Virus record (IMG/VR): IMGVR_UViG_3300031992_000005 | Coordinates: 128,001 to 192,000 of that record | Length of the DNA stretch: 64,000 bases | Reading direction: 5' to 3' (one strand) | Source of the DNA: a virus | Shown here: positions 13,647-50,524 of the stretch, piece after piece | Position numbering within the stretch: the first letter of the stretch is position 1 | Layout of the letters: each line of letters opens with the position of its first letter | Notes under the pieces: model-generated | What the model saw: the letters and a program-made list of their open reading frames with translations, nothing else | Database searches by the model: none | Told to the model about the DNA's origin: nothing | Position numbers and translations under genes: made by a program

Positions 13647-13666
13647 TTTTTAAATCTTTAAATTTT

Positions 13667-14218: not shown

Positions 14219-14258
14219 AGTGAAAAAACGCAGTTCTTGAGGCATAAATACCTTAAGG

Positions 14259-14903: not shown

Positions 14904-14950
14904 ACCGTCTAATACCTTATAGAAGAAATATTAATTTGTAGATCGTAATT

Positions 14951-15574: not shown

Positions 15575-15580
15575 AGATAA

Positions 15581-15615
15581 GTGAGAGAAGAAAAATGATG
15601 AGTTTCTTTTCTCAC
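15581..15615 (+). terminator. intrinsic-terminator-like hairpin
   Basis: 13-bp stem with one mismatch (gtgagagaagaaa / tttcttttctcac) followed by ttttt. Confidence 0.6.
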
Positions 15616-15637
15616 TTTTTAATTATATGAAAATTAT

Positions 15638-16246
15638 ATGATAACGTTAGCAGATCGAGGTGCCAGTAATATAACAGTAATGACAACGGGGGAACCATTA
15701 CCTCCAGATGGAACTGACGATTACATCAAGATTGCTCTCTTAGGATCAACTGATATGATCGATGGGGGCGAGTTAGACTGGTATCAGAAATTTTGTACAG
15801 GCTTGGCTATTATAGCAGGCCGAGAATCCAGTAGAGGAGTAAATATATTTAAGAGTCTTAATTACTTAATCTTTAATTGTAAGACTCCACCAGTACCAGA
15901 CGGTACTATGTCTGTTAATAATCCAGCTTTTGTTAACCACCTTAGCTGGTGTTGTGACGTAGCTACTGCAGCAGATGGTATATTTGTTAATTTCTTGAAG
16001 AATAGTCAAAGTGTAATGCCAGTGTATTGGTTTTCGCTTTTTGCACAATCAGGGAAGCTAGTATGTAGAGTTCCCCTAGAGCAAGATTATATCTTTTCGG
16101 GACTAGTAAATACTACGTGCCAACGCTTTAATATTCCATGTTTCCCAGGGAAAATGGGAAATGTAATGTCAGTCATTCAGGCATTTTTCAACTTTGTGCC
16201 TAAAATGCAAATCCTTAGTAATCCAGCAATACAGTTACCTGAATGA
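15638..16246 (+). CDS. hypothetical protein
   Basis: 202-aa track ORF. Confidence 0.5.
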   Translation: MITLADRGASNITVMTTGEPLPPDGTDDYIKIALLGSTDMIDGGELDWYQKFCTGLAIIAGRESSRGVNIFKSLNYLIFNCKTPPVPDGTMSVNNPAFVNHLSWCCDVATAADGIFVNFLKNSQSVMPVYWFSLFAQSGKLVCRVPLEQDYIFSGLVNTTCQRFNIPCFPGKMGNVMSVIQAFFNFVPKMQILSNPAIQLPE

Positions 16247-19952: not shown

Positions 19953-21467
19953 ATGAATGTAAATGATAGTTTTTCCCATAAACTTGGGGGAGATACACTG
20001 AATGAGTATATTTATTCAAATGTGAAGAAGAAGGTGAAGGAGGATAAGTTTCCTGCTAAGAATAGTAGAGACCTAATTGGAGATGGTGTAGTAGATGAGG
20101 ATATGGGCGAAGCTATAGAGCCAATTGATCCTATTAGGTTTGTTGCAAAGGTTAACGTAACTGACACATCAAGTCCTACTAAACTGTTTAATAATCCAAG
20201 TAATCTGGCGGCAATCGAGATAGATGGTGTTGTGTATGAAGGTAATGATATATCTAGTAATCTTAATCATACCTTTGATAGTGTTGGAATACATACAGTG
20301 AAGTATACACTTAAAGATGGAATGACTACTATTAATGATGGCAGTTGTTTTCAATTTATAACTGCCTTAGTTAGTATAACAATACCAGAAAGTATTACTA
20401 GTATTGGTGGTGGTGCATTTAGTAGTTGTTATTCTTTATCTTCCGTTACAATTCCTGGTTCAGTTACTAGTATTGGTAGTGGTGCATTTGGTAGTTGTAC
20501 TTCCTTAACCTCTATTACAATCCCTGGTTCAGTTACTGAGATTGGTGGTAGTGCATTTAGTGGTTGTACTAATTTAACAAATGTAGTAGTAAGTGATTAT
20601 GAAGGTGGTAATACAACTATTACTAATGCTGCATTTTCAGGTTGTACTGGATTAGTTTCCCTGATTTTGGGAAATTCCGTGACAACTATTACTAATTCAG
20701 CATTTGCTAGTTGCGCTGGACTGGTTTCCTTGACATTGGAAAATTCCGTGACAACTATTAGTAATGGTGCATTTAATGGTTGTATTAGTTTAGCTAAAGT
20801 TAATATTCCCAATTCTGTTATTAATCTTAGTAATAGTCCATTTGCAGGTTGTATTCGACTGACTAGATTAACAATACCTAGTTCCGTTGTTCATTTAAAT
20901 AATATTGGAGGACATTTTAAGTTTAATGATATTAAATTTAGAACAATTAATCCGGATGCTGATTTTACCCGTGATGCTACAAATAAAGTAATCCTTGATA
21001 AGACGGGTACTATATTATTATGGGGATTCGAAGATACAGTAGCAATTCCGAATACAGTAACTAGTATTGGTCAGAGAGCATTTAGTGATTGTACTTCTCT
21101 AACTTCCATTACAATACCAGATTCAGTAACTAGTATTGGTGAGTATGCATTTCAGAAGTGTACCTCCCTAACTTCTATTACAATTCCTAGTTCAGTTACT
21201 AGTATTGGTGGTAGTGCATTTTATAATTGTACTTCCCTAACCTCTATTACTATTCCAGGTTCAGTTACTAGTATTGGTAGTCAAGCATTTTATAGTTGTA
21301 CTTCTCTAATTTCTATAACATCATTAGCGACAACTGCTCCGACGATTAGCTCTTATACTTTTTGGGAAATCAAATCTAATGGTACTCTAACAGTCCCTGC
21401 CGGTTCTACAGGTTACGATGCCTGGATGGAACAATTACCTAGTGGTTGGACTCTAGTTGAGCAATAA
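19953..21467 (+). CDS. BspA-type leucine-rich-repeat protein (fibre/receptor-binding candidate), class-I N-terminal module
   Basis: At least 12 repeats of about 23 aa of the type ITIPxSVTSIGxxAFxxCTSLTS. Its N-terminal 45 aa or so are shared with ORFs 25309 and 27707. Confidence 0.8.
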   Translation: MNVNDSFSHKLGGDTLNEYIYSNVKKKVKEDKFPAKNSRDLIGDGVVDEDMGEAIEPIDPIRFVAKVNVTDTSSPTKLFNNPSNLAAIEIDGVVYEGNDISSNLNHTFDSVGIHTVKYTLKDGMTTINDGSCFQFITALVSITIPESITSIGGGAFSSCYSLSSVTIPGSVTSIGSGAFGSCTSLTSITIPGSVTEIGGSAFSGCTNLTNVVVSDYEGGNTTITNAAFSGCTGLVSLILGNSVTTITNSAFASCAGLVSLTLENSVTTISNGAFNGCISLAKVNIPNSVINLSNSPFAGCIRLTRLTIPSSVVHLNNIGGHFKFNDIKFRTINPDADFTRDATNKVILDKTGTILLWGFEDTVAIPNTVTSIGQRAFSDCTSLTSITIPDSVTSIGEYAFQKCTSLTSITIPSSVTSIGGSAFYNCTSLTSITIPGSVTSIGSQAFYSCTSLISITSLATTAPTISSYTFWEIKSNGTLTVPAGSTGYDAWMEQLPSGWTLVEQ

Positions 21468-23985: not shown

Positions 23986-25305
23986 ATGAATAGAGATAAA
24001 TATTTCAATCTTTTTGATTCGCACAATGATTATATTAGTGCGAAGAATAATTTAAAGAAGCCAAATATAAGTTATTGTGAGGATGTAGGTGTACTATACA
24101 ATCCTTGGACTTGGGAAGAGGAATATTTAACTACGGAGGCGCTTGAGAGCGGTACGATTTCTTTTGAGATAGGAAAGAATGTAACGGTTAATGACTTAGC
24201 TTCCGTTTCTTATTCCAAAGATTCTGGTGAAACATGGACTACCACAGAAAATACTAGGGGAAGAACAAATACTCTCACAATTTCAGTATCAGTTGTTGCT
24301 GGTGATAATGTAATATGGAAAGGTTCAGGGGATCGAGTATCAGTTGGAGAAGGAATTGGAAGTTATTCTAGGTTTGGAACAACTGGAAATATAAATGTAA
24401 AGGGAAATATAATGTCGCTTATTTATGGCGATGATTATAAGGGCCAGACCGACCTTAGTGGGAAGATTGATTGTTTTACTAAGCTTTTCACAAGTTCTAA
24501 AGTAGTTAGTGCTGAGAATTTATCCTTACCTGCCATGACATTGGAAGAGAATTGTTATAAGAAACTGTTTTCTTCCTGTGGTAGCTTAGTAACGGCACCT
24601 AAACTCCCGGCTACAACATTAGCAACTAACTGTTATAATAGTATATTTGATGGTTGTACTAGTTTAACGTCAGTACCAGAACTTCCTGCTACAACATTAG
24701 CAAGTGGCTGTTATAGTTACATGTTTAGCGATTGCTCCAGTCTTGTTGAAGCCCCAGAATTACCAGCCCTTACCTTAGCAGATAATTGTTATAATGGCAT
24801 GTTTAGTGGATGTTCTGGTCTTATAAAGGCGCCTAGACTTATTGCCAATGAATTAGAGATGGGCTGTTATAGTTCTATGTTCGCTGATTGTACCAGTTTA
24901 GTGGTAGCTCCTAAACTCCCAGCTACAGTAATGGAATGGGGATGCTATACGGAAATGTTCGTAGGCTGTACTAGTTTAGTAGAGGCCCCACAACTTCCAG
25001 CCATGACTTTGGAGGAAGATTGCTATGGCAGTATGTTCATGGATTGTACAAGCCTAGTTAAAGCTCCAGACCTACCTGCTACTGTATTGGCAAATTATTG
25101 CTATATGTCCATGTTCTTTGGATGTACTAGCCTAAATTACATTAAGGTAATGGCAACGAGTATTAATCGAGATGTGCACTTAGGCGAAGAATGGATGGGA
25201 GATGTTCCAGCAACAGGAACATTTGTGAGAAATAAAGATGCAACGTGGCCAATTCAACCTAATTATGGTATTGTGCCACGAGGATGGACCGTAATAAATG
25301 AATAA
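23986..25305 (+). CDS. repeat protein with about 23-aa LPAxTLxxxCYxxMFxGCTSL repeats (second LRR-like class)
   Basis: At least 8 consecutive repeats, for example LPATTLATNCYNSIFDGCTSLTSVPE and LPATTLASGCYSYMFSDCSSLVEAPE. Confidence 0.7.
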   Translation: MNRDKYFNLFDSHNDYISAKNNLKKPNISYCEDVGVLYNPWTWEEEYLTTEALESGTISFEIGKNVTVNDLASVSYSKDSGETWTTTENTRGRTNTLTISVSVVAGDNVIWKGSGDRVSVGEGIGSYSRFGTTGNINVKGNIMSLIYGDDYKGQTDLSGKIDCFTKLFTSSKVVSAENLSLPAMTLEENCYKKLFSSCGSLVTAPKLPATTLATNCYNSIFDGCTSLTSVPELPATTLASGCYSYMFSDCSSLVEAPELPALTLADNCYNGMFSGCSGLIKAPRLIANELEMGCYSSMFADCTSLVVAPKLPATVMEWGCYTEMFVGCTSLVEAPQLPAMTLEEDCYGSMFMDCTSLVKAPDLPATVLANYCYMSMFFGCTSLNYIKVMATSINRDVHLGEEWMGDVPATGTFVRNKDATWPIQPNYGIVPRGWTVINE

Positions 25306-29359: not shown

Positions 29360-29472
29360 GATCCCGGGGAGATAGTTCTTAGTGATAAGGACTATTTCTC
29401 TTTTCCCCGAAACGTAAAAAACTCCGGTATCCTCCGGGGAAGCTCTTATTTATAGTTATAAATTTTAGTTTT

Positions 29473-30069
29473 ATGGGAATTAGAAAAATATATTATGGTA
29501 TGAGTGGAGCATTTAAAGGTTCTACAATAAGACATGACTTAAAATTAAATCCCGACACTCAGGTAATGTATTCCGGCATAAAATCATGGAAGAAATTTCA
29601 TGAAAGCTTATTTAAAGACCTATTACCTCAGAGCGATCTTCATTTCAGCCTATTACACTTAGTTAGATTGGAGGAATTTATGTCGGGAAAACCAGAGAAT
29701 TTCATCATTGAGAGGGGTGTAACCGACTCCTTATTTTACAATTTATACAATGATGAGTATAATTCTAGCAAACCCTCAGAAGAGACAATTAAGAAGACTG
29801 TTGAGGCGGAGCAGAGTCTATTAGGGGGCATTGATAATTTAGAGAGGGTACTCTTAATTCAAGAGGATGTTGATTTTGTAAAGAACATTGTCTTTAAAGA
29901 AGAGTCTCGTGCAAAAACATTTAACTATGATCCAGACTATTATTTCCAACTCCAGAAAACCTATGTAGAGTTTACGATGACTCACAATAAAGTTGATAAT
30001 GTTGTCAGGATTAAGGATGCAAGAGAGTATATTCTTAATACTCTAGAAGAACAAATTAAATTTTTCTAA
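29473..30069 (+). CDS. hypothetical protein, weakly (deoxy)nucleoside/nucleotide-kinase-like
   Basis: Degenerate P-loop-like GMSGAFKGST and an ERGVTDSLFY (ERS-like) segment. Located directly upstream of nrdD. Confidence 0.25.
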   Translation: MGIRKIYYGMSGAFKGSTIRHDLKLNPDTQVMYSGIKSWKKFHESLFKDLLPQSDLHFSLLHLVRLEEFMSGKPENFIIERGVTDSLFYNLYNDEYNSSKPSEETIKKTVEAEQSLLGGIDNLERVLLIQEDVDFVKNIVFKEESRAKTFNYDPDYYFQLQKTYVEFTMTHNKVDNVVRIKDAREYILNTLEEQIKFF

Positions 30070-30071
30070 TT

Positions 30072-30587
30072 ATGACGGTAATCAAAGTAGATGAGTCAAA
30101 AGAGCCTTTTGATATTATCAAAATTCATAAGGCCCTAGAAAAAGTTTTCTCTCAATGCGGAGAAGATTTAACAGAAGAGATCTTAACTAACCTGGATGAA
30201 TATGTCAAGAAATCGTTAGACACTGAAGCAGATGTTGAGATTGAGGTGGATGATATTCACAACCTAGTTGAGCAATTTCTTATGTTGAATAACTTCTTTG
30301 CTGCATCTAAGTCTTATATCTTAGGACGATATAAGAAGGCCTTAGAGAGAGCAGAGAACAAAATGTATATTAAAAGTTTATCAGAAAAATTAAGTGCAAT
30401 TGATGTAGCTAATCAAAATGCAAACGTAGATGAGAAGAGCTTTGGTGGTAGAATAGGTGAGGCTAGTAGATATGTTGTAAAAGACTTTGCCTTGAACTAT
30501 TGTATGAGCCGAAAATCAAAGAACAATCATCTTAATAATGAAATCTATATTCACGACCTCGATTCTTACACAATTGGTTCTCATAAT
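30072..30587 (+). CDS. nrdD: nrdD exon 1, N-extein part
   Basis: ATP-cone-like MTVIKVDESKEPFDIIKIHKALEKV; ends ...IYIHDLDSYTIGSHN. Confidence 0.8.
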
Positions 30588-33500
30588 TGCGCCCATGGTA
30601 AGTCATGGGTTAAGATAAAACATGGTGGCAAAATTCATTTAACTCGTATTGAAGATCTTGCTAAAGAAGTTGGTTTGACTGATGGTAAACTAGCTGATGT
30701 ATCAAAAGACTGTTGGCAGATTTTGTCACGTGATGGATGGACAAAGCTCAAGAATATTTCCCAGAGAAAATTAAGGGAAGATGAAGAGCTTTTTACAATT
30801 AAGACAAGAACAGGCATACCACTTAAATTGACTGGTGAGCATAGATTGCCTATTCTAGATGAAAACGGTGAAGAAAAAGTAGTGAAGGTTAAGAACCTAA
30901 AGGTAGGTGATTCTCTGCTTGATATAGGGAATATTCGTTTTTCAGAGGAAGATTTGAATGAGTCTTTCTTGAACTTATTAGAACTTAACGACGATGTTGT
31001 AGATATTAGGATAACTAATCTATCTTCATTAAAAAGCTATTTGGAGTATCATTATGGTATTAATTTTACGGAGTTTGCTAGAAAGAATAATTTTGCAATA
31101 GATCCTAGGGCAAAAACGATGAAATTATGCGATTTCGTAAAGTTAACAAGAGAATATCCAATTTCATTTGAAGTTTATAGTAATTTATTAATTAAGTCCA
31201 GTGGTTCAAAGCATACTTATCCACTTCACATACCGTATACACCACAATTAGCTAAACTTTATGCTTATATTTATGCAGATGGTGGAGTATATGTGAATGA
31301 GGAGAAAAGCATGTTTCAGATTACTTTTACAAATACTAATGAGAAGCTTTTGGATGATTTCATTGATTGCTATGAAGATGTATTTGGATATAGACTTAAC
31401 AAATCGTATCCAGGTGCTACGGCAACTTCTCCTTGTATTAGAGTAACTGACGGAACCAGACTCATAGTAAAGATCTTTAGAGATTTTGCTGGGGCTAGAA
31501 AAAATGGATCCAATAATATCTCGGTACCAGACTTTGTTATTAATGGAACAAATGAGATCAAGTATGCATATTTATCTGCTTGTATAGATACTGACGGTTG
31601 TCTCAATAATAATAGAATTACCTATCACTCCTGTTGTGAAAGATATTGTCAGCAGTTAGCAATTATGTTAAACTCGCTTGGTTATCATCCAACCGTAGTA
31701 CAGTCAGGTAAAGCAGGTGAAGAATATCATTTCGGAAATAAGGTCGGAAAAAGAAACTTTGATTCTTTTGCAGTTGCGTTGTCGCGTAAAGATGAACTTG
31801 CTGCATTACAGTCAAAATTATCTTGCCTTAAGCACAATGATACTTATGTGTATCGTGGACTTAAGGATAAGTATGTTGAGAATAGGATTGTATCTATTTC
31901 AACCAGTTATGAAGATTGTTCCGTATATGATATGGAAACTGCTTCACATTGGTATATTATAAATAATTATGTCAGTCATAATTGTCTCACAATTCCATTT
32001 GACGAACTTCTCGCCAGTGGATTTAATACGAGACAGACTGATGTAAGACCAGCAAACAGTATTAATACTGCTTTGCAACTTGTAGCTGTAATATTCCAAC
32101 TTCAGAGTTTACAGCAATTTGGTAGGCAAAACTGCCTGTTAAGCCCTTTCCACTAATCAGTGGGGTATAGATGTAATCTATGCTAACGATGAAGCCTAAG
32201 TGTTCAGTGATGCGACATAAGGTAATATCGTGGGAATGTAATTTAATAAAATTACAAGCCTGTATCGACTATCTGCGGATCGGCAGAGTAAGGCAACTAT
32301 TGATACGTTGTTTGAAATGGGCTTTGCTAGATTTATTAAGTCTAGTTAAGATATAGTCAGTGCATATAGAAATATATGATAAAACGGGTGTATCGGCATC
32401 ACACCTCGATTGGACTCTTGTTCCATACGTTAAGAAATCGTTTTATAAGCATTTCAAGACAGGAGCAGAATTCATTGAAGGAGTAACAATTCCTATTGAG
32501 GAATTTAACGATAAAATGTCGCTCGATGATGAGAAGTATAAGTCGAGCGGAAAAGTTTATACATTTGCTATTAAGCAGACAGAGAAAGAACTAAAGCAAG
32601 CAGTGGAGGGAATGTATCATAATCTCAATACACTCCAATCACGTAGTGGGAACCAATTATAACTTGCTGATTATCAGCTAGTTACGAAAGTAGCGAAATA
32701 TTGATTGGCTATGTAGAAATACATTGAAATAATCGGGGCAAAATCGGTGAACCCTAAATTTTAAATTGTAAAAATTAATTCATTTCACTTTAATAGAAAT
32801 TATTATATGGGTAAAAGAGTAAAAATCACAGAAGAATTAAAAAAAGATATTATAAATTTTTATCGCAGTAAGCCAATGTCATTTCTTACAGTAAGCGAAA
32901 AATACGGTTTATGTTTGCCAACAATAAGTAAGATTTTAAAAGACGAAGAAAGATACAAGAAAGCGTCTATTTTTAATCCAGACTTTGATGAAGCGTATTT
33001 TGAAAATATTGATACAGAAGCAAAGGCATACTTTTTTGGATTAATAATTGCTGACGGTAATGTTTTTATCGACGAAAAAAATAAAAAAGCGAATAGGCAA
33101 GCAGTTATATCAATAATGCTAAATTCAAGTGATGAATATATACTAGAGCGCTTTAAAAACGAGGTAAAAACAAATACTATTGTTGGACATGATGGTAGAG
33201 GGTGTTCACAAATAGCGGTTAGAAGTAATAAAATGTCAAAAGACTTGGAAAAATATGGTGTTGTGCCAAGAAAAAGTTTTATAACTTATTTACCACAAAT
33301 AGATAAAGAGTTAATGCCGCATTTAATAAGGGGCATAATGGATGGAGACGGCAGTATAAATGCCCATTTAATTAAAAGTGGTAGATTTTTACATTCGATT
33401 GCATTTTGTGGAACTCATAGATTAATGTCTGAAATATCTGATTTTATATATTCTAATGCGAATTTGAATACAAAACCCAAAGTGTATGATTATAAAACTA

Positions 33501-35642
33501 GAACACTTAGTGAAATTGCTGTAAGAGGTATCGATGATATGTTTAAACTTGGGGAATTTATTTATAACAATTCAACCATATACTTAAACAGAAAAAGAGA
33601 AACTTATAATATGTTTTTAGAACATTACAATTTTTAAAACAAGGGAATACCGAGGTAATTTCTGAGATTGCGAAAGGCTCAGAAATACCGTAGAGCGTAG
33701 GAGGTGAATAAATATAATCCTCCCAAGAGTGTCCCCCCTTAGCGAGTAAAGTCGAAGGTGAAAATGTACGCCGACCTTATGGGAAACCATAAGAACTATG
33801 GGATAAAAAGCCTGTAGGATAACATAAGTGGCCATTTACATCTATCAATTACGGTACATGTACGTCCGTAGAAGGTAGAATGGTGATAAAAGCCTTGCTT
33901 GAAGGTTCGATTAATGGTGTGGGTAAATTTCATAGAACATCCATATTCCCTAAAAGTACCATTGGGGAAATAAAACAAGGTGAACTGTCAGAGACAGGTG
34001 TGGAAGTAGAATATAGTAGGAAATGACTATTGAGATACTTTTGCTAACAGGGGAAATCTAAACTTTAAATTAAAGCACGACAATCCTGTGCCAAGTTCTT
34101 TTATAGAAAAGGTCAAACGACTATCCTATGACGTTATTTAACTGAGGAGTAGGTCTATAGCGATATAGTTCCGAAGTGCCTTGTACTACTGAAGAGTAGT
34201 AATGATATAGTCTAATCCGGCTTCCTAGTAAGCGTTAAAGTATTGCGAAAGCAACGGTATATAATGTGTGGAATTTTCCAGTATATGAAGGGTGTTAATG
34301 ATAAGCCTGGAACGCCAAATTATGATATGTATAAACTTGCATTAGAGTCAACAGCAAAACGTTTGTATCCAAATTATGCGAACGTTGACTGGAGTGGGAA
34401 TGCTGGATATGATAGAAATGATCCAAAAACTTACTTCAGCACGATGGGTTAGTGTAAATGTAGCTCATCTAAAATCTCTTGAACCGTGCCAACGGGTGTC
34501 CAGAAATGGGCTAACTGCCAGGCCCTAAAGTTTTAGGGTGAAGCAGTGCTAAGCTTAGAAGAATTTCTAAGAAAGTGTATCGACTATTGGTGATGAATGT
34601 AGCCAAGTAGGGGAGGAGATAGGCACCTCTTCGAAGCGGGAGACTTCTCAGGAAAATGAGAAGAAGATATAGTCAGTGCCTTTGGTAACAAAGGGTTAAC
34701 ATGTGCAGAACTGCAAACGGTTTTGATATAAATGGTTTAGGTCAGTTAAAGGATGGTAGAGGAAATGTATGTCCAGTTACTATCATTATGCCGACCTTAG
34801 CGATGGAAGCCGACAGAGATGTAGAGAAGTTCATGCGTCTCTTAGGAAGAAAAATTGAAGAAGCAAAAGACATGTTAATTGAGAGATTCAACTGGATTTG
34901 TAGTCAAAGTCCAGAGTCTGCTAGATTTATGTATGAGAATAATACTATGGCGGGTTATGTTCCGTCAGAGGGTATTAGGTCTGCATTAAAGCATGGAACT
35001 CTCAGTTTAGGTCAGCTTGGCTTAGCAGAAACTCTCCAGTTATTGATTGGAACGGATCATACAACAGAGGAGGGTATGAAGTTAGCCAAGAGAATTGAGT
35101 CTCTTTTCAAGAAGAGATGTGCAGAATATAAAGAAAAGTATAAATTAAACTTTGGTGTATACTACACACCAGCCGAAAATCTCTGTTATACTGCATTGAA
35201 GAAATTCAGAACAAAATATGGAGTAATAAAGGATGTAAGTGATAAGGAATTTTTCACTAATTCCATCCATGTTCCTGTATGGAGAGATATGAACCCATTT
35301 GAGAAGATTGATATTGAATCTCAGCTCACGGGTTATTCTTCGGCGGGTTGTATTACTTATGTTGAACTCCCATCCACAGTATTAAATAATATTGAGGCTT
35401 TGGAGACGTTAGTGAATTATGCAATGGATAAGGATATTCCTTATTTTGCAGTTAATGTCCCAAATGATACTTGTATGGAATGTGGTCATACTGGTGAGTT
35501 CGATGTTTGTCCTGAATGTGGTTCAGATAATGTAAGTCAGTTAAAGCGAGTTACTGGCTACTTGAATCTAGATTACAGAACTTCTTTCAATGAAGGAAAG
35601 CAGGATGAAGTACGGTATAGAGTAAAACACATCAAAGGTTAG
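30072..35642 (+). CDS. nrdD: anaerobic ribonucleoside-triphosphate reductase NrdD. Mosaic gene with 5 exons and an intein in exon 1; inferred mature protein about 723 aa
   Basis: ATP-cone N-terminus, IYIHDLD, SRSGNQL-PFTSINYGTCTSVEGRMV, IFP-CGIFQYMKGVNDKPGTPNYD, STMG-CRT, Zn ribbon CMECGH..CPECG, and glycyl-radical RVTGYL. The pieces are spread over 5 track ORFs and one untracked frame. Confidence 0.9.
30588..31982 (+). mobile_element. intein (465 aa) with a LAGLIDADG homing-endonuclease domain, in-frame within nrdD
   Basis: Starts with Cys (CAHGKSWVKIK). Has block B LKLTGEHRLPI (TxxH) and two LAGLIDADG motifs (LAKLYAYIYADGGVY, KYAYLSACIDTDGCL). Ends VYDMETASHWYIINNYVSHN followed by +1 Cys (CLTIPFDELLASGF). 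Confidence 0.8.
31983..32123 (+). CDS. nrdD: nrdD exon 1, C-extein part
   Basis: CLTIPFDELLASGFNTRQ...LQSLQQFG. The ORF then runs into junk and a stop 11 codons later. Confidence 0.75.
32124..32386 (+). mobile_element. group-I-like intron 1 of nrdD (263 nt, no ORF)
   Basis: The 5' exon ends in T and the intron ends in G. Joining gives QQFG-GVSASHLDWTLVPYV. Contains CGACTAT (32266) and GATATAGTC (32350), which can pair GACTA/TAGTC (P7-like). Confidence 0.7.
32387..32658 (+). CDS. nrdD: nrdD exon 2
   Basis: GVSASHLDWTLVPYVKKSF...NLNTLQSRSGNQ(L). It has no plausible start codon of its own at the conserved region. Confidence 0.75.
32659..33830 (+). mobile_element. group-I-like intron 2 of nrdD (1172 nt) carrying a LAGLIDADG homing endonuclease gene
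   Basis: The 5' exon ends in T and the intron ends in G. Joining gives SRSGNQL-PFTSINYG. I did not see the GATATAGTC element in this one. Confidence 0.6.
32807..33637 (+). CDS. LAGLIDADG homing endonuclease (intron-encoded), N-terminal HTH-like region
   Basis: Two LAGLIDADG motifs, YFFGLIIADGNVF and HLIRGIMDGDGSI. Sits between nrdD exons 2 and 3. Confidence 0.85.
   Translation: MGKRVKITEELKKDIINFYRSKPMSFLTVSEKYGLCLPTISKILKDEERYKKASIFNPDFDEAYFENIDTEAKAYFFGLIIADGNVFIDEKNKKANRQAVISIMLNSSDEYILERFKNEVKTNTIVGHDGRGCSQIAVRSNKMSKDLEKYGVVPRKSFITYLPQIDKELMPHLIRGIMDGDGSINAHLIKSGRFLHSIAFCGTHRLMSEISDFIYSNANLNTKPKVYDYKTRTLSEIAVRGIDDMFKLGEFIYNNSTIYLNRKRETYNMFLEHYNF
33831..33951 (+). CDS. nrdD: nrdD exon 3 (40 codons; not in the ORF track)
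   Basis: Hand translation: PFTSINYGTCTSVEGRMVIKALLEGSINGVGKFHRTSIFP, a highly conserved NrdD block. Confidence 0.75.
33952..34266 (+). mobile_element. group-I-like intron 3 of nrdD (315 nt, no ORF)
   Basis: The 5' exon ends in T (cct) and the intron ends in G. Contains CGACTAT (34118) and GATATAGTC (34204). Confidence 0.65.
34267..34449 (+). CDS. nrdD: nrdD exon 4
   Basis: CGIFQYMKGVNDKPGTPNYDMYKLALESTAKRLYPNYANVDW...YFSTMG. Confidence 0.75.
34450..34703 (+). mobile_element. group-I-like intron 4 of nrdD (254 nt, no ORF)
   Basis: The 5' exon ends in T (ggt) and the intron ends in G. Contains CGACTAT (34581) and GATATAGTC (34666). Joining gives STMG-CRTANG. Confidence 0.7.
34704..35642 (+). 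CDS. nrdD: nrdD exon 5 (C-terminal third with Zn ribbon and glycyl-radical loop)
   Basis: CRTANGFD..., CMECGHTGEFDVCPECG and RVTGYLN. Confidence 0.85.
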   Translation, partial: CRTANGFDINGLGQLKDGRGNVCPVTIIMPTLAMEADRDVEKFMRLLGRKIEEAKDMLIERFNWICSQSPESARFMYENNTMAGYVPSEGIRSALKHGTLSLGQLGLAETLQLLIGTDHTTEEGMKLAKRIESLFKKRCAEYKEKYKLNFGVYYTPAENLCYTALKKFRTKYGVIKDVSDKEFFTNSIHVPVWRDMNPFEKIDIESQLTGYSSAGCITYVELPSTVLNNIEALETLVNYAMDKDIPYFAVNVPNDTCMECGHTGEFDVCPECGSDNVSQLKRVTGYLNLDYRTSFNEGKQDEVRYRVKHIKG

Positions 35643-35645
35643 TTT

Positions 35646-36143
35646 ATGAGGTATATTAAAATAACAGGCCCTGATGTAGAAAATGGTCTAGGTTTTAGAA
35701 CTACGTTATGGATTTCTGGGTGTAAGTGCCATTGTGAGGGATGTCATAATCCTGAAACATGGTCCTTCACATTCGGAAAGGAGTTCACTGATGAATCTTA
35801 TCAGGAGCTAAAGGAAAATTTATCCAAGCCTTATATCAAGGGGCTAACTTTATCTGGTGGTAATCCAGTTGATTCCCCGGAAGATTTATTAAGTTTATTG
35901 AAAAGAGTAAGAGAGGATTTTGGTAATTCAAAGGACATTTGGCTTTATTCTGGCTATGTATTTGAAGATCTCCTAAAGGATCCTCTATGTAAAGAAATTT
36001 TAGGCTTAGTTGATATAGTGGTAGATGGTCCATTTATCCTAAGCAAAAGAAATACAGCGCTCCCCTTCAGAGGTTCAGAGAATCAAAGAATTATCTTGGT
36101 TCAAGAATCCCTGAAAGAGGGAAATATAATCCTAAAGCAATAA
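35646..36143 (+). CDS. nrdG: anaerobic ribonucleotide reductase activating protein (radical SAM)
   Basis: GFRTTLWISGCKCHCEGCHNPETW cluster; LSGGNP; directly downstream of nrdD. Confidence 0.9.
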   Translation: MRYIKITGPDVENGLGFRTTLWISGCKCHCEGCHNPETWSFTFGKEFTDESYQELKENLSKPYIKGLTLSGGNPVDSPEDLLSLLKRVREDFGNSKDIWLYSGYVFEDLLKDPLCKEILGLVDIVVDGPFILSKRNTALPFRGSENQRIILVQESLKEGNIILKQ

Positions 36144-36493
36144 TAAATAATCCATTCCTCAGGAGAAAACTCTTGGGGAATGGCATCTGCTGAATGAAAA
36201 ATATTCATTTATATCAAAAAATATTCAAAAATAAGCAAGCTTTTTAAAATCACGTGATATTTATATATGAATACTAAGATAAATAATAAAAAAAAATAAG
36301 TGAACTTATGAAACATAAAAATATTAAAGTTGTTTCGATTGACACTGAAAATATGTTGTATACTTGTGACGATGGTAATGAATCCATTAATGGATGGGCT
36401 TGAAACATTGTCAATAGAAGAGTTACAGAAACACATAGATAGTGCAAAACAAGCAACACTTGATATAATTGAAAAAAAAATAGAAAGTAGGCT

Positions 36494-38134
36494 ATGATTA
36501 TACAGAGTAAGTATACAAAGATATTCCATTCAAAGGATTTAACTCGTCAGAAGTATGATGAGTTAAATGACTTTGCTGTGCTTATTCAAAACCATAAAAA
36601 CACCGTGTCACAATACGTTAATGATAACATTCTTCATTTCTTGGAATACAATAAGTTCCAATTCCTTAAGGTAATGAGAGAACGTTTCAAAGAAGTTATC
36701 CCAAGTTCATTTGATGCACAACTTTATACACAAGTGTTCACTTGTTATCAGAATAAATTCGATGCAATACAACGTAAACTTGTCTTTGAAATCGTTACAT
36801 TTAAAGGATTTGAGTTTTATAAACGTGATACCAAGAAACATAAGGAAGGTGACTTGAAAAAAGTAGTTTTTGATAAGAAACAAACACCATTATCTAACTG
36901 TCTTACTTATCTTGCGAGATACAGTAATGAGAATACAATAGACTACATCAATGACAATATAAGCAAGTGTGACGAGAAGAAACGTGAGTTCTATAACAAC
37001 ATACTAAGATGTTGTGATAAATTCGGATTTGAACGTCTCTACAATCTTGCTTTGTCAAAAAGAAAACGTGTTGTCAAGCATTATTCTGAATATCCTATTG
37101 AGTTCAAGTCATTAACGTTCAGTGGTAGGTGTAGGAAGACAAGGATAATAGACTACAACAGTAGGTTTGGTTCAGTAATCAATTCATTCGTAAGTCTCAG
37201 TGGAATTGGTAGGAAATCATTTGATGTACCAGTTACCTTTAATAAAGGTTGGCATGGAAGTATGAAGGATTACAGAAAGAAAAATAACGATTATGAATAC
37301 ACGCTTACATTTAATGAAAAGAATCACCAAGTGAATATTCATCTGTGTAAAGATGGAGAAAGGTATATACCACAAGTACATGGTGAAACAATAGGCATTG
37401 ATGTTAATTGCAAACATAATTTGTTCAGTTTGTCAGATGAAACCACTTATGACTATGATAGAAAACTTGTTAATGACTTCTGTAAACTATCTCTTGAAAT
37501 AGATAAATTGAAAGAAAAAGATAAAAAATATAAGGTTGGTAAACGTAAACAGCAGAAACTTGATACTCTCAAATCCAAAATGATTAAGTCTGAGCAGCAA
37601 CTTATTGCTAATATGTGTAAGGTATTACATTCACAAGGTGTGGGGCATATTGTAATGGAAGACCTTGATAATGGATTTGGCAAATGCTATGTTAAAGATA
37701 AGGATAATGAGAATATAAATTACAACAGAAAGGTTAAATTCCTTGGCTTGAGTAGTCTTAAACAAGAAGTTGAGCGTATTGCAAAGAAATATGATATTGC
37801 GGTTTCAACAGTTCAAGCAAGTTATACATCGAAGATGTGTCCTATGTGTGGATGTATTGAGGACGAAAACAGACCAAACCAAGAAACATTTGAATGTGTT
37901 GAATGTGGACATAAAGATAATGCAGACTTTAATGCTGCAAAGAACATAAGGAACAGAGTGCTTGTAATCGTGTTACGAGATTTGCTCTTAAAACAAAAGG
38001 ATAATGGTGCTTTTGAGCCTAAGAAACTTAAACGTGAGAAGGTAAAGGAGGTATTGTTATCGTTTCGAAGAAGCCTACAAAATGTAGGAAGTGAATGTAC
38101 AGAAAGTAGTGTGACTACTTTTGACTATGTTTAA
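36494..38134 (+). CDS. tnpB: TnpB / Cas12-like RuvC nuclease (IS200/IS605-IS1341-type OrfB), 546 aa
   Basis: RuvC-I ETIGIDVNCKHNLF; RuvC-II GHIVMEDLDNGF; zinc ribbon CPMCGC...CVECGH; RuvC-III DNADFNAAKNIRNR. No TnpA and no CRISPR array nearby. Confidence 0.85.
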   Translation: MIIQSKYTKIFHSKDLTRQKYDELNDFAVLIQNHKNTVSQYVNDNILHFLEYNKFQFLKVMRERFKEVIPSSFDAQLYTQVFTCYQNKFDAIQRKLVFEIVTFKGFEFYKRDTKKHKEGDLKKVVFDKKQTPLSNCLTYLARYSNENTIDYINDNISKCDEKKREFYNNILRCCDKFGFERLYNLALSKRKRVVKHYSEYPIEFKSLTFSGRCRKTRIIDYNSRFGSVINSFVSLSGIGRKSFDVPVTFNKGWHGSMKDYRKKNNDYEYTLTFNEKNHQVNIHLCKDGERYIPQVHGETIGIDVNCKHNLFSLSDETTYDYDRKLVNDFCKLSLEIDKLKEKDKKYKVGKRKQQKLDTLKSKMIKSEQQLIANMCKVLHSQGVGHIVMEDLDNGFGKCYVKDKDNENINYNRKVKFLGLSSLKQEVERIAKKYDIAVSTVQASYTSKMCPMCGCIEDENRPNQETFECVECGHKDNADFNAAKNIRNRVLVIVLRDLLLKQKDNGAFEPKKLKREKVKEVLLSFRRSLQNVGSECTESSVTTFDYV

Positions 38135-44783: not shown

Positions 44784-45149
44784 ATGAATAAAAATAATGA
44801 TAGTTATTATTACAAAATAGTTTTGGCGTATGAAATACCATACAACGTCTTAGATAGTAACGATCCTGATAAGATCTTAGCTAGGGAGAATCTATATCAA
44901 GCGATAACTAAGATTATTCCCACTAGTAAGTATGATAAATTTTCAGTTAAACTTATGCTTTTTCAATTAAAGGATACGTTTAACTACGTGGTGATGTTTG
45001 ACTCTTTCTTTAGGTCTACAGAAGGTTTACCTATGAGTGAGTACACTGAGGCTAGTAAGATTAAACAGGCAGCTAAGGATGAACTAGAGAAATACTTTAA
45101 TTCACTCGACTGCGATTATAAACCACTGAATATAATTACATTATTATAA
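44784..45149 (+). CDS. hypothetical protein in the RNAP block
   Basis: Track ORF; TAATG junction with the beta-like gene. Confidence 0.5.
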   Translation: MNKNNDSYYYKIVLAYEIPYNVLDSNDPDKILARENLYQAITKIIPTSKYDKFSVKLMLFQLKDTFNYVVMFDSFFRSTEGLPMSEYTEASKIKQAAKDELEKYFNSLDCDYKPLNIITLL

Positions 45150-48100
45150 TGAGTAATTTTAATCAATTTTTCAAAAATCAAGGGGCAAAGACGATGGTAG
45201 AGCGTTTCTTTACCGGAATAGATGAATATACGCCAAATAAGAAACTAACAAACCTAACTTGGCATCTAGCCGAAGAAGATAAACGCCCAGCTTCATATTT
45301 CATAGAAAATGGATTAACTGCAACTCATAAGGTAATCCTGGAGTATACAATTAACTATGATGATGAAATTCGTACATCTGAGTTTGAAGTCCCTAGAGAA
45401 ATAGACGGTGTATTTATTATAGAAGGAGCTTATCGTATTGCTACTAATAACCTAGGAAAAGACTATGATTGTAGAATCAATATGTCAGGTACTGGTAGAC
45501 AATACATTAACTTTGACTATGGTAGAGAATATGACATCAAGACTGGTATTCTTAAAATAAAGAGGGTAAATCCTGACTTAGGTTTACCTGAAAAAGTAAG
45601 AGAATATAAGTTAGATGAAATAGATGAACTCAGTGGTATTGAAAAAGAAGTTCTAAAACTTTCTGAAAGACAGAGAAAGAAGTTTCAGGTAAAGCTTGAT
45701 ATTGATTATTCCCCGGATTATATTTCAAAGAAGCTTATCGAGGATTGTATTGCTTATGGCGATGATAGAATTCGAGATCTTATTATTGATAAGAAGATTG
45801 ATTCTGTTCCCGTTGGTTTTATGAAGTATATCTTCAATGGAGGTAATAATAAGAACTTCTATGGTACAAAATCCCAACTAAGAAACTATTGGAGTAAGCA
45901 AGGTAAGTTACAGGACCAGATTAATGTACTTACAAATCTTTGTGCTAGATACTGGAAAGGTAGTAGTTCAAAGAAGAAAGGAGAGGATAATGATGTTCAA
46001 GTTTCTCCTGGTGTAAATGCCATGAACCTGGAAAGTATCACGAATAAAATCTATATTCCTGAAACTGTAGCTTATAATACTACCTTTAGTGACTTGATTT
46101 GTGTTGGTGCTACACCAAATAATGGTAACATCGGTAAGCAGAATGCCTTGACTGTATCTACCCATATTACAGATGAGGATGTTCTCTTTGACTGTTATAC
46201 TACCAAGTTTCAAAAGATCACTATCCCATACTTGGATTATCTTAATCATAAGGTATGTGCTAGTGAGTACGTTGACTATGATACTAATACCGTTAAACCC
46301 GATAAGGATGGTAAGGTAGAAGTTAAGCATAGAATGCGTAGAAAGATGGTACCAGTGGAGGAAATTGAGTTAATTGACCTTCACCCAGACTATCGTTTAT
46401 CAGAAGAAGTAAGACGTATACCGTTTGTGAATTTTACTGACTCTGTTCGTATCTGTATGGGTAGTGGTATGTTAAAGCAAGCTATTCCACTTGTTAATGC
46501 AGAAAGACCTCTAGTAGATACAGGTAACTATGAAGAGCTTCATACAAACGTCTTGAATGAACGTTTTAAAGAAGAGTCTGGTGTAGTTAAGGATGTAAAT
46601 GAAGAGGGAGTATTAATAGAACTTCCTAATAAGGATGAAATTCTTATTCCAAGAAAAACTGCTATTCAGAGTATAAATGATGTTGACGTCTTTACTGAGC
46701 CTAAAGTTAAGAAAGGCCAAAAGGTAAAGAAGGGTGATGTTATTACTGGAGCAGTTGGCTTGGAAGAAGATACCTATAAAATGGGTATTAATGCTCTCGT
46801 CTTATTCCATGCAATGTTTGGTGATGTCAATGAAGATGCCTTAGTAGTTAGTGAGTCTTTCTCAAAGAAAATGCACTCTTACTCTGTTATCGACCTGATA
46901 TATGAAGTAAGAACTAATGAGGCAATCAAATGGATAGCTCCAATAGGTCAACAGGTAAAGTCTAAAGATCCCGTCATGATGACCTATAAGGCTGTTAAAC
47001 TTGACTTAGTCAATAAGGCCTTGAATGATAAATTAGGTGGTATCTTTGGAGATCAAAAACTAGATCTCTCTGAATATACTATTGAAAGTAACTTGGAAGT
47101 TCCTAATGACATTGATGAAGCTTATGTTAGTGATGTTAGAATTCAGGAAAATTTACACCCTAGAGTTCCTGGTGGTACTAAGAGACCTGACTTAACTTAT
47201 GCTCATACATCAGAGGAGACTATCAAAGATTATAATTTTGATAGAAAAATTATCTATGATAGATATCCAGAATATATTGCAGCAGATAGACTTAAGGATA
47301 TATCATTAGCAGATAAGGATTATAAGATTGTTTATGTAGTTCGTATTAGACTTATTAAGAGAACAAATCTTATGATCGGATCTAAGGTTACCAACCGTTA
47401 TGGTGGTAAGGGTGTCATTTCTAAGATCTTGCCAGATGATAAGATGCCAATCATGGTAGAATCTGCAACTGGTAATAAGAAAGTTGTGGATATTGTCATG
47501 AACCCTTATAGTACAATTAACCGAAAGATTCCTTCTGTTAATATGGAGAGTCTCTTAGGTTCAATTGCGCATAGAATTCATGACATAGTAGATGAGAGGA
47601 AAAATGATAAGAAAAAACAGGAAACTATCATGCCTCTTGTTCAGAAGTATTATCCTGGTCGATTTGATGGAATGACATTAGAGAAGTTCTTGAAGTTACA
47701 TGAAAATAGTAAACTTGAGGACGTATATTACTTCAATGTAGGTAGTTACTCTAGACTTACTCCAAAGCAGATAGATGAATGGGCAAAGGAATTAGGTGTT
47801 ACACCTCAATCAAAGATTCTCATGCCTAGTGATACTATCGCTGACCTTGATGAGCTTAAAGCGAACTTAAGTGAGGAAGAATATAATACCGCCGTTAAGA
47901 ACTTGACAGGTAGATACGTAGAAGTTGAAAAGCCACTTAGTGTTGGTTATATGACTATGGAAGAACTATATCAAATTCCAACTTATAGTGATAAGGTAAC
48001 TTCTAGTATGTTCGGTGTTGATGTTAATGAGTGGGTAGATTCTCCTATTATGGGTAGAGGTGGTTATAGAAAAACTGGTCAGATTATCGGTGAAATGGAG

Positions 48101-48310
48101 CTCATGGCATACTTGTCAAGAAATGCCAGAGATTTCATTAAGCTCTCTAGAGGAGATACCTCAAGAGAAGATAATCAGCTCTTCTTGAATAACCTCTTAG
48201 GTCTTGGTCTAACTGTTACAGACAGTAAGGGTTATAATCAGGGCGGTTCATCTCTCAAGAGTAGACTTGGTGAGATGAAGACTAAATTCAGACTAAAGAA
48301 TCAGAAATAA
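45149..48310 (+). CDS. rpoB: multisubunit RNA polymerase beta-like subunit
   Basis: NRYGGKGVISKILPDDKMPIM...VDIVMNPYSTINRKIPS (compare bacterial RHGNKGVISKI..EDMP...DIVLNPLGVPSRMN) and GGYRKTGQIIGEMELMAYLS (compare GGQRFGEMEVWALEAYG). Confidence 0.85.
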   Translation: MSNFNQFFKNQGAKTMVERFFTGIDEYTPNKKLTNLTWHLAEEDKRPASYFIENGLTATHKVILEYTINYDDEIRTSEFEVPREIDGVFIIEGAYRIATNNLGKDYDCRINMSGTGRQYINFDYGREYDIKTGILKIKRVNPDLGLPEKVREYKLDEIDELSGIEKEVLKLSERQRKKFQVKLDIDYSPDYISKKLIEDCIAYGDDRIRDLIIDKKIDSVPVGFMKYIFNGGNNKNFYGTKSQLRNYWSKQGKLQDQINVLTNLCARYWKGSSSKKKGEDNDVQVSPGVNAMNLESITNKIYIPETVAYNTTFSDLICVGATPNNGNIGKQNALTVSTHITDEDVLFDCYTTKFQKITIPYLDYLNHKVCASEYVDYDTNTVKPDKDGKVEVKHRMRRKMVPVEEIELIDLHPDYRLSEEVRRIPFVNFTDSVRICMGSGMLKQAIPLVNAERPLVDTGNYEELHTNVLNERFKEESGVVKDVNEEGVLIELPNKDEILIPRKTAIQSINDVDVFTEPKVKKGQKVKKGDVITGAVGLEEDTYKMGINALVLFHAMFGDVNEDALVVSESFSKKMHSYSVIDLIYEVRTNEAIKWIAPIGQQVKSKDPVMMTYKAVKLDLVNKALNDKLGGIFGDQKLDLSEYTIESNLEVPNDIDEAYVSDVRIQENLHPRVPGGTKRPDLTYAHTSEETIKDYNFDRKIIYDRYPEYIAADRLKDISLADKDYKIVYVVRIRLIKRTNLMIGSKVTNRYGGKGVISKILPDDKMPIMVESATGNKKVVDIVMNPYSTINRKIPSVNMESLLGSIAHRIHDIVDERKNDKKKQETIMPLVQKYYPGRFDGMTLEKFLKLHENSKLEDVYYFNVGSYSRLTPKQIDEWAKELGVTPQSKILMPSDTIADLDELKANLSEEEYNTAVKNLTGRYVEVEKPLSVGYMTMEELYQIPTYSDKVTSSMFGVDVNEWVDSPIMGRGGYRKTGQIIGEMELMAYLSRNARDFIKLSRGDTSREDNQLFLNNLLGLGLTVTDSKGYNQGGSSLKSRLGEMKTKFRLKNQK

Positions 48311-49414: not shown

Positions 49415-50524
49415 ATGAGAAAGAAAAAAGAAAAAGAAAAAGTAAAAGTAGATCAGCCTGAATTGATCGAAGAGGTTGTAGAACAACAGCCTGAAGAAAA
49501 CCTGGCTAAGGAAAATTCGGCTGAAGAAAAAGTTGTAGCGGAAGTTCCTAAGAAAAAGACTTCGAGAAATTCAAATCTTCACGAAGCTAAACGTGCGAAG
49601 AATGATGAATTCTATACTCAATTAACGGATATTGAAAAGGAATTGTCACATTATAAAAAACATTTTAAAGGGAAAGTTGTTTTTTGTAACTGTAATGATG
49701 CAATTCATGGTAACTTTGCCAAATATTTTTCTTTAAGCTTTGAAGCCCTAGGATTAAAACAACTAATCTGTACTTCCTATGGAGAGAATGCTAAGGTCTT
49801 TATCTATAGTGGAGATAAGAATGGCAATAGAGTCCCAGACTTAGAAGATTGGGAAATTCAAGACTTAAAGGGTGACGGTGATTTCAGGAGTGATGAAATG
49901 ATTGAACTCCTTAAGAAGGCTGATATTGTTTGTACAAATCCACCATTTTCTTTGTTTAGGGAGTATATCGCTCAGTTAATTCAGTTTGATAAAAAATTCC
50001 TCATCATTGGTAATGGAAATGCTGTTACATACAAGGAGTTTTTCCCACTTATAAAAGAAAATAAAGTATGGCTTGGATGCACCTTATTCTGTGGAAAAAT
50101 GCCTTTTTTTAAGGTTCCAAATGACACAGATGTTTCTAAAGGCGCAAAGCATTACTATGATAAGAACGGAGAGCTTTTTAAACAAGTAAATTCTATTGCA
50201 TGGTTTACTAATCTTGACCATAACCGTCGTCATCAGCCAATAGATTTATATAAGAAATATACTCCAGAGGAATTTCCAAAGTATGACAATTATGACGCTA
50301 TCAACGTAGACAAAACTTGTGATATTCCAATAGATTATAATGGAGTTATGGGTGTGCCAATTTCATTTCTAGATAAATATTGTCCTACTCAATTTCAAAT
50401 CATAGGAATAACAGAAAATGCGAATTATCTAAGTGGTTTATATATTAAAGGCTGTGATAAATATGACAGACCTTATATTAATGGGAAAAGAATGTATAGT
50501 AGAATTTTAATTAAGAAACTATAA
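49415..50524 (+). CDS. N6-adenine-type DNA methyltransferase (EcoRI-methylase-like family by eye)
   Basis: Catalytic motif IV VCTNPPFSLFREY. N-terminal KNDEFYTQLTDIEKEL..YKKHFKGKVVFCNCND pattern. Lys/Glu-rich leader. Confidence 0.65.
   Translation: MRKKKEKEKVKVDQPELIEEVVEQQPEENLAKENSAEEKVVAEVPKKKTSRNSNLHEAKRAKNDEFYTQLTDIEKELSHYKKHFKGKVVFCNCNDAIHGNFAKYFSLSFEALGLKQLICTSYGENAKVFIYSGDKNGNRVPDLEDWEIQDLKGDGDFRSDEMIELLKKADIVCTNPPFSLFREYIAQLIQFDKKFLIIGNGNAVTYKEFFPLIKENKVWLGCTLFCGKMPFFKVPNDTDVSKGAKHYYDKNGELFKQVNSIAWFTNLDHNRRHQPIDLYKKYTPEEFPKYDNYDAINVDKTCDIPIDYNGVMGVPISFLDKYCPTQFQIIGITENANYLSGLYIKGCDKYDRPYINGKRMYSRILIKKL

Follow-up and report, generated by a model that had tools for sequence, protein, structure and literature searches.

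A viral nrdD gene very probably colonised by four group I introns and an intein

A stretch of 64,000 nucleotides (nt) of the IMG/VR virus record IMGVR_UViG_3300031992_000005 (positions 128,001 to 192,000; hereafter the window) was analysed. It was concluded that positions 30072-35642 of its plus strand very probably form one functional nrdD gene, encoding a class III (anaerobic) ribonucleotide reductase (RNR), into which five selfish splicing elements have inserted, four group I introns and one intein, their splicing being inferred. The conclusion is carried by the logic of the reading frame, the homology and structure of the ribozymes, the signature of the intein, the collinearity of the joined product with uninterrupted homologues, and natural alleles in which single elements are present or absent.

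Layout of the nrdD locus and its natural alleles

An initial annotation of the window had already divided nrdD into five exons. All of its exon and intron coordinates were found to hold, so that the observation was confirmed and its interpretation supported. The features of the locus are listed below, where ^ marks a junction, ORF stands for open reading frame, and L127, L128 and L130 are related contigs carrying other alleles of the gene.

30072..30587, plus strand: nrdD exon 1, N-extein part, with the ATP-cone and the start of the NRDD domain, ending in ...IYIHDLDSYTIGSHN (ORF list, Pfam, intein coordinates)
30588..31982, plus strand: intein of 465 amino acids; Pfam Intein_splicing 44.2 bits (cut-off 35.8) and LAGLIDADG_3 40.3 bits (cut-off 22.5)
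31983..32123, plus strand: nrdD exon 1, C-extein part, CLTIPFDELL...SLQQFG (frame joining, collinearity)
32124..32386, plus strand: intron 1, ORF-less group I intron of 263 nt; P1 UUUGGU^AGGCA / UGCCUGUUAAG with U.G at the splice site; core CGACUAU...GAUAUAGUC
32387..32658, plus strand: nrdD exon 2, GVSASHLDW...SRSGNQ and 2 nt of a Leu codon (ORF list, joined frame, alignment)
32659..33830, plus strand: intron 2, putative group I intron of 1172 nt from a divergent IA-like family; P1 CCAAUU^A / UGAUUGG; P2 at about 32708-32723; 5' strands of P3-P4-P5 at 32734-32755; core P5'-P9.1 at 33642-33830; P7 GCGUA/UACGC; precisely absent in L130
32807..33637, plus strand: predicted homing-endonuclease ORF of 276 amino acids in the P5 loop of intron 2; PHROG 4645 'endonuclease', E 1.7e-43
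33831..33951, plus strand: nrdD exon 3, 121 nt, the last base of the Leu codon and then PFTSINYGTCT...RTSIFP (frame, alleles, alignment)
33952..34266, plus strand: intron 3, ORF-less group I intron of 315 nt; P1 UUCCCU^AA / UUGGGGAA; matched by RF00028; precisely absent in L130 and L128
34267..34449, plus strand: nrdD exon 4, CGIFQYMKG...YFSTMG (frame, alleles, alignment)
34450..34703, plus strand: intron 4, ORF-less group I intron of 254 nt; P1 GAUGGGU^UA / UAGCUCAUC; matched by RF00028; precisely absent in L130
34704..35642, plus strand: nrdD exon 5, CRTANGF..., with the Zn-site cysteines CMECGH/CPECG and the glycyl-radical motif RVTGYL (Pfam NRDD and Gly_radical, structure alignment)
35171..35172, plus strand: empty site for a fifth intron, YYTP^AEN, after the Pro codon; filled in L127 and L128
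35646..36143, plus strand: nrdG, the NrdD-activating radical-SAM enzyme, directly 3' of nrdD; Pfam Fer4_12, E 1.3e-44

In the ORF list, nrdD appeared on the plus strand as pieces of 694, 100, 69 and 313 amino acids, with a 276-amino-acid ORF between the second and the third piece. Exon 3, at 121 nt, was not an independent gene in that list, as had been noted. Joining of the five exons (30072-32123, 32387-32658, 33831-33951, 34267-34449 and 34704-35642) gave 3567 nt, a multiple of three, which translated without a stop or a frameshift into 1188 amino acids. The rule previously read from the junctions, a T at exon position -1 and a G as the final intron base, was true for every exon and every intron. 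The proposed insert of 465 amino acids with Hint and LAGLIDADG parts was borne out as an in-frame segment at 30588-31982.

The locus was recovered from independent ENA, JGI and Logan assemblies by an exact-protein look-up of NrdG, and the five-element allele was found in two of them. An assembly artefact was rejected, since the same structure recurs in these independent assemblies. The source samples are ENA ERZ27257202 and ERZ27257205, JGI 3300028888 and 3300024342, and SRR7634052. One contig, L126, was 100% identical to the window over 29400-36200.

The L130 allele (JGI 3300024342, 1-316) is the strongest evidence. Its exons were 100% identical to those of the window, introns 2, 3 and 4 were missing, and the junctions lay exactly as predicted (32658^33831, 33951^34267 and 34449^34704), so that three of the four intron junctions were confirmed base for base. 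The contig starts with GGGAACCAATT^GCCATTTAC, where exon 2 is joined to exon 3, and continues with ...ATATTCCCT^TGTGGAATT and ...CGATGGGT^TGCAGAACT; its ORF reads GNQLPFTSINYG...SIFPCGIFQ...STMGCRTANGF. L130-type empty sites include GGGAACCAATT^GCCATTTAC and GGTTCTCATAAT^TGTCTCACA.

Further alleles differed in other ways. L128 (JGI 3300028888, 1-131) was without intron 3 and kept introns 2 and 4; nine synonymous third-position changes were present at 34269-34314, just 3' of its empty intron-3 site. Other synonymous differences between alleles were located next to intron 4 (34709/34712) and next to an extra intron (35174). This fifth nrdD intron, of 925 nt, occupied L127 8602-9526 and L128 1033-1957. 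It interrupted an invariant block, contained a 206-amino-acid HNH_3 ORF, was preceded by U at -1, ended in G and displayed the T4-type core CGACUAUCG...AAAUAUAGUC; its flank was changed synonymously from CCA GCC to CCT GCA. In the intron 4 of L127 and L128, 14 nt were changed within 34516-34545 and the two-tier hairpin was kept. To judge from these sequences, the synonymous changes, concentrated near insertion sites, and the conserved intron-4 hairpin match the pattern expected from homing with co-conversion and from selection acting on RNA structure. The allelic series, with 0, 1, 3, 4 or 5 introns in near-identical genes, is a resource for examining how introns are gained and lost, how co-conversion proceeds and how ORF-less introns spread.

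The collinearity of the gene product was assessed after removal of the intein as well. In the intein-free product of 723 amino acids, a single unbroken match to PF13597 NRDD took in positions 2-562 of the 562 in the profile (Pfam, E 6.9e-148, 494 bits); NRDD was covered end to end and the joined sequence was collinear, as the initial annotation had expected of the spliced product. Pfam ATP-cone and Gly_radical matches were also obtained. The product aligned over its full length with the solved NrdD structures 8p23 (E 3e-102) and 9d3x (E 3e-87), and the exon 5 region aligned with 8p23, 9d3x and 1h78. Hundreds of uninterrupted NrdD homologues of 713-723 amino acids showed 70-78% identity to it.

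An alignment with five uninterrupted homologues, of 71-78% identity, demonstrated that all junctions were gap-free within invariant blocks, which agreed with the earlier expectation for the junctions. These blocks were ..G.HN^CL.IPFD for the intein, SLQQFG^GVSA for intron 1, SRSGNQL^PFTSINYG for intron 2, SIFP^CGIFQ for intron 3 and STMG^CRT for intron 4. When mapped onto T4 NrdD (1h78), the +1 Cys of the intein aligned with Cys79 and the Cys codon right after intron 4 with Cys290; these are the two active-site cysteines of class III RNRs. RVTGYL, the glycyl-radical motif, was intact, and so were the Zn cysteines near the C-terminus (CMECGH...CPECG). Hence, NRDD, the glycyl-radical motif, the Zn Cys4, both active-site cysteines and an adjacent nrdG were all present, as is characteristic of a class III RNR. 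Judged from the alignments, every insertion interrupts an invariant catalytic block, two of them directly at active-site cysteines.

The four introns and the intein

Introns 1, 3 and 4 shared the T4-type P7 core CGACUAU...GAUAUAGUC, with the R/S elements GACUA...UAGUC, and yielded full-length alignments with the Rfam group I model RF00028 (1-253/253). The DNA form of the motif, CGACTAT...GATATAGTC, had been reported from three introns; within the window it was confined to introns 1, 3 and 4. The RF00028 scores were 42.7 bits (E 7.6e-10) for intron 1 in a permissive scan of 311 nt, and 39.8 bits (E 5.1e-8) and 35.2 bits (E 1.2e-6) for introns 3 and 4 in a permissive scan of 2.8 kb, where the E-values apply to the stretches scanned. 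Although these scores are below the gathering score of 50 bits, they are significant by E-value. Of the four segments, the model picked out introns 1, 3 and 4, below the threshold and with significant E-values, and missed intron 2, the one exception among the checks set by the initial annotation. Introns 1, 3 and 4 as recent duplicates of each other were rejected, as only core motifs were in common.

In minimum-energy folds, P1 hairpins of 7-11 base pairs with U.G at the junction were formed at all four 5' splice sites, those of introns 1, 3 and 4 being of 8-11 base pairs. In-frame stops were encountered 10, 1, 24 and 0 codons into introns 1, 2, 3 and 4, respectively. These positions agree with a rule noted for phage introns, by which translation does not extend into the ribozyme core (PMC2504315).

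Intron 2 differed from the others. Over its last ~190 nt, it shared 70-80% identity with stretches of numerous phage genomes; there, these stretches follow, on the 3' side, an HNH or LAGLIDADG ORF by which a gene is interrupted, for example the one for the RecD-like helicase in Bacillus phage PJN02. A pattern built from two invariant blocks matched at least 120 IMG/VR contigs, and the family was also found in 120 deposited phage genomes, mostly under the annotation 'none' or 'hypothetical protein'. The invariant joiners of the family were GUAGAGC, CCAAGAGUG and AAAAUGUACGCC, with P7 being GCGUA/UACGC. The motif AAUCGGGGCAAAAUCGGUGAA (32731-32751), which lies 5' of the ORF in the window, directly adjoins the core in many relatives; the window ORF is therefore an insertion in a hairpin loop.

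The structure of intron 2, comprising nine helices and 56 pairs, was read from the sequences and tested on a 24-member alignment. Paired states were found in 93.6% of the cells, compared with 32-43% when the 3' partners were slid by 1-3 columns, and 42 of the 56 pairs were changed on both sides; none of 500 shuffles matched the observed values. Covarying pairs were recorded in P3 (4 of 5 pairs, e.g. GGGC/GUCC to CCCG/CGGG), P4 (U-A to A-U) and P7 (GCGUA/UACGC to GCAUA/UAUGC). The helix order was P1-P2-P3-P4-P5-P4'-P6-P7-P7.1-P3'-P8-P7'-P9-P9.1, with P7 crossing P3 in a pseudoknot and the ORF in the P5 loop. P7 and P3' were separated by an extra hairpin, a feature shared with subgroup IA, J3/4 and J4/5 were A-rich, and the last base was G. 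Owing to this helix order, the P3/P7 pseudoknot, the P7-P3' hairpin, the A-rich joiners, the U.G of P1 and the terminal G, intron 2 is by its modelled architecture taken to be a group I intron, its exact subgroup being inferred. Its 3' tail ...GAUAACAUAAGUG resembles those of the T4 td and Twort introns. A relative of intron 2 in the gene for the terminase of Lactobacillus phage JCL1032 was found within a coding sequence (CDS) annotated as a two-piece join, and the ROSA and JCL1032 phage introns have been handled as group I introns of IA1/IA2 type (PMC2504315). A group II identity was rejected for intron 2, as neither a GUGYG start nor a domain V-like hairpin nor a reverse transcriptase was found, and the terminal G and the topology are those of group I.

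It had been proposed that one intron carries a LAGLIDADG homing endonuclease gene. This was supported for the 276-amino-acid ORF of intron 2 by the PHROG 4645 match and by two visible dodecapeptide-like motifs, LIIADGNV and IMDGDGSI; the Pfam LAGLIDADG scores, however, stayed below the cut-offs (LAGLIDADG_3, 20.1 bits against 22.5; LAGLIDADG_1, 20.6 bits against 23.1). A weak match to the LAGLIDADG structure 2dch (E 0.017) was recorded too. Within the same ORF, the minus strand at 33471-33531 resembled RF01414 (Dictyostelium class I RNA; 29.6 bits against 41.5, E 0.003-0.0075), which was dismissed as a chance hit in AT-rich sequence, and matches to mir-2001, sroH and a snoRNA, far below the gathering scores, were likewise attributed to chance.

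The residual novelty lies in this intron-2 family, which is abundant and yet invisible to RF00028. It is possible, if rather doubtful, that intron 2 represents a large, compact subclass of phage group I introns, with a core of ~190 nt that tolerates ORFs in P5 and is unseen by Rfam, or that the allelic series records the gain and loss of ORF-less introns by co-conversion. Should the former be true and no subgroup model cover the family, many split phage terminase, nrdD, helicase and tape-measure genes would be systematically mis-annotated.

Some other members of the family were observed in IMG/VR contigs. One was present in another phage nrdD right after RVTGY, at the glycyl-radical motif (L015), and another in a phage nrdD at SRSG^NQLP, which by frame continuity is 8 nt upstream of the intron-2 site (L022). 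L065 contains a further gene with several introns: on its minus strand (~3256-5410), a family member is flanked within ~2 kb by two group I introns of canonical type (104 and 68 bits), which are separate from it.

The intein displayed Cys1 (CAHGK...), the block B motif TGEH (LTGEH), a C-terminal ...YVSHN and a +1 Cys, together with two LAGLIDADG motifs, YAYIYADGGV and LSACIDTDGC. Its insertion block, HDLDSY..G.HN^CL.IPFD, was invariant and gap-free in intein-less homologues. The same NrdD site holds homologous inteins (30% identity, full length) in Aeromonas phage vB_AceP_PAc and Fusobacterium phage phiKSUM.

Inteins at another site were noticed in four homologues with ~70% identity (P0064, P0065, P0075 and P0104), where Hint/LAGLIDADG inteins of 160-350 amino acids lie between STMG and CRTANG. 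This is the finger-loop Cys and the same inter-codon position that is held here by intron 4, a coincidence of sites of the kind discussed for SPbeta. Unlike in those homologues, the finger-loop site in the window is occupied by an RNA intron, and the intein is found at the Cys aligned with T4 Cys79.

Proposed pathway and alternative explanations

RNA splicing, protein splicing and nuclease activity are predicted for the locus from sequence. We proposed that nrdD and nrdG would be transcribed as one pre-mRNA, in which each of the four ribozymes would fold and pair its internal guide with the last exon bases, placing a U.G wobble at the splice site. Free guanosine would then cut the 5' splice site, and the terminal G of the intron would be used to ligate the exons, with the early in-frame stops preventing ribosomes from reaching the ribozyme cores. 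The ligated mRNA would be translated into a precursor of 1188 amino acids, from which the 465-amino-acid intein (Cys1 ... His-Asn, +1 Cys) would excise itself; its removal would join ...GSHN to CLTIPF... and yield NrdD of 723 amino acids, to be activated by NrdG.

The LAGLIDADG domain of the intein and the LAGLIDADG-type ORF of intron 2 may act as homing nucleases that spread their elements to empty alleles during co-infection. In the window allele, only intron 2 and the intein encode nucleases, and the ORF-less introns 3 and 4 are still polymorphic. As introns 3 and 4 are only 121 and 183 nt from their neighbours, co-conversion or recombination with empty alleles is a likely route. For introns 1, 3 and 4, the most likely means of persistence or movement would be co-conversion alongside nuclease-driven events nearby.

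Several points weigh against the conclusion that the gene is functional and its elements are spliced. Splicing at the locus is a prediction from DNA sequence. At the gathering threshold, the Rfam search of the whole window returned two tRNAs and no group I match, introns 1, 3 and 4 all being under 50 bits. Even under permissive settings, RF00028 found nothing in intron 2, scanned alone and within 2.8 kb, and the classical P7 sequence GACUA/UAGUC is absent from it; a scan of the extra intron of L127 with the same model gave no match either. The junctions of intron 1 and the intein were placed by collinearity, with no allele lacking intron 1 or the intein found by exact-junction searches of IMG/VR and the metagenome collection. 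Finally, intron 3 allows ribosomes to proceed 24 codons into the ribozyme, and its folding could suffer.

One alternative is that the invasion was recent and the gene is no longer fully functional: although the introns and the intein are genuine, one or more of them (the most plausible being intron 3, intron 2 and the intein) would be splicing-dead, with no active NrdD being formed from this genome. Three of the introns carry no endonuclease gene and score under the Rfam cut-off, intron 3 is without an early in-frame stop, and in metatranscriptomes of Jug (jumbo gut) phages splicing was supported for 37 of 76 predicted introns, one nrdD gap being without splicing evidence (PMC12880540). Nevertheless, this explanation was considered improbable: the exons show 100% identity to the intron-less allele and retain all invariant NrdD residues, the five-element allele recurs in two independent assemblies, and compensatory changes preserve the hairpin in the variants of intron 4, implying that the RNA structure is under selection.

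It was also considered that intron 2 might belong to another ribozyme class or be a protein-dependent element, group I-like in layout only. Its P7 GCGUA/UACGC and its joiners GUAGAG, CCAAGAGUG and AAAAUG depart from the classical R/S consensus. Further, RF00028 was blind to the ORF-containing relatives L002-L004 and to five ORF-less ones (L017, L022, L060, L065 and L118) even at E<=1. On the other hand, the Rfam group I model has been described in 2025 as incomplete, and existing models may fail on phage variants (PMC11878797); the miss of intron 2 is a known limitation of the model for phage introns and not evidence against an intron. Given the covariation-backed IA helix order with the P3/P7 pseudoknot, the 5' U.G, the terminal G and the A-rich J3/4 and J4/5, the precise absence of intron 2 in L130 and the treatment of its relatives as group I (PMC2504315), a different nature of intron 2 seems highly improbable.

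A decaying pseudogene broken by unrelated insertions, or separate polypeptides that assemble as in NrdA of Aeromonas phage Aeh1, would agree with gene callers and GenBank annotators treating such loci as several 'NrdD-like' CDSs (phiKSUM, TR-TP2), and is effectively refuted by exons 3 and 4 (40 and 61 codons) having no start codons of their own, by two junctions lying within codons or where only exact joining restores invariant blocks, and by the intron-less allele with identical exons and 3567 nt free of frameshifts and stops.

Known mosaic genes and the genome context

Split RNR genes are well known in phages, and nrdD was the one most often split in a survey of 128 phage genomes (PMC3653736). 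In Brochothrix phage A9, nrdE contains three introns and an intein, bnrdE of B. subtilis phage SPbeta a group I intron together with an intein, nrdD of Clostridium phage c-st an intein, and nrdE of Twort two introns (PMC3653736). The locus described here resembles those of A9 and SPbeta in that conserved blocks of a gene for the large RNR subunit are interrupted by one or more group I introns and also by an intein, homing endonucleases being encoded in some of these elements (PMC3653736). In contrast to their class Ib nrdE, a class III nrdD is affected here, by four introns and an intein, which is one element more than in A9 nrdE.

The nrdD gene of Jug phages consists of four fragments with endonucleases and Intein_splicing domains, its splicing was confirmed by metatranscriptome reads, and crAss-like phages are similar (PMC12880540). 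Those phages have genomes of 360-402 kb and four nrdD fragments, whereas five exons and an in-frame intein were found here in a genome of ~108 kb; the two were likened by their described layout. Hence, the earlier statement that the load is unusually high was retained in part: the load is high, but comparable mosaics have been published (A9 nrdE, Jug phage nrdD) and a similar one lies unannotated in phiKSUM.

The nrdD gene of T4 (sunY) contains a single group IA2 intron with I-TevII, a GIY-YIG nuclease. Introns 1, 3 and 4 have the same T4-type core CGACUAU...GAUAUAGUC, and none of the four intron sites coincides with the T4 site. A site shared with the T4 nrdD intron was rejected for intron 2 as well, the T4 site being ~12 codons upstream (AYE^YEVNT vs SRSGNQL^PF).

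A related arrangement was recognised in the rumen Fusobacterium phage phiKSUM (L134, OR492276.1, ~11148-15656). An intein occupies the same ...N^C site, an NrdD CDS stops after ...AQHFG, at the position equivalent to the intron-1 site, and a canonical group I intron (80.4 bits) follows further down, the gene being spread over ~4.5 kb. Its exons are ~27-46% identical in protein, and it has been annotated as three separate NrdD-like CDSs and small hypothetical ORFs, with no introns or intein. The phiKSUM nrdD is probably a mis-annotated mosaic gene with at least one intron.

A megablast search of the region against 50,697 phage records gave no match, the phage thus being without a close sequenced relative. 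The nearest nrdD in DNA was that of Thomasclavelia phage TR-TP1/2 (~70%). In TR-TP2 (L001, PQ571310.1, 27345-30468), nrdD is itself annotated as two CDSs, with an HNH endonuclease gene between them that presumably belongs to another intron.

The locus is a heavily loaded example of the documented mosaic phage RNR genes and involves no new mechanism. Its 2.2 kb of coding sequence hold five elements (six in the sibling genomes), and it illustrates how far selfish elements can accumulate in one essential phage gene without destroying it. Since gene callers and GenBank fragment such genes and RF00028 misses or under-scores all these introns, they are under-reported by phage pipelines.

The window looks like part of a phage genome of ~108 kb. 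Downstream of nrdG, at a distance of 350 nt from its 3' end, a TnpB-like protein of 546 amino acids is encoded at 36494-38134 (plus strand; Cas12f1-like TNB domain, E 1e-16; weak OrfB_IS605), and its gene recurred in this position in every related contig (L126-L130). Four BspA-type leucine-rich repeat proteins (LRR_5) of up to 1199 amino acids, at 19953-21467, 23986-25305, 55019-57028 and 57021-60620 (plus strand), are possibly host-recognition or tail-fibre proteins. Further plus-strand genes encode an RNA polymerase beta-like protein (45149-48310; Rpb2 domain 6, E 1e-15), an EcoRI-type adenine methyltransferase (49415-50524; E 5e-127) and two tRNAs (52386-52458 and 61542-61627). The RNA polymerase-like gene, the methyltransferase and the tRNAs are traits of a large, transcriptionally autonomous phage.

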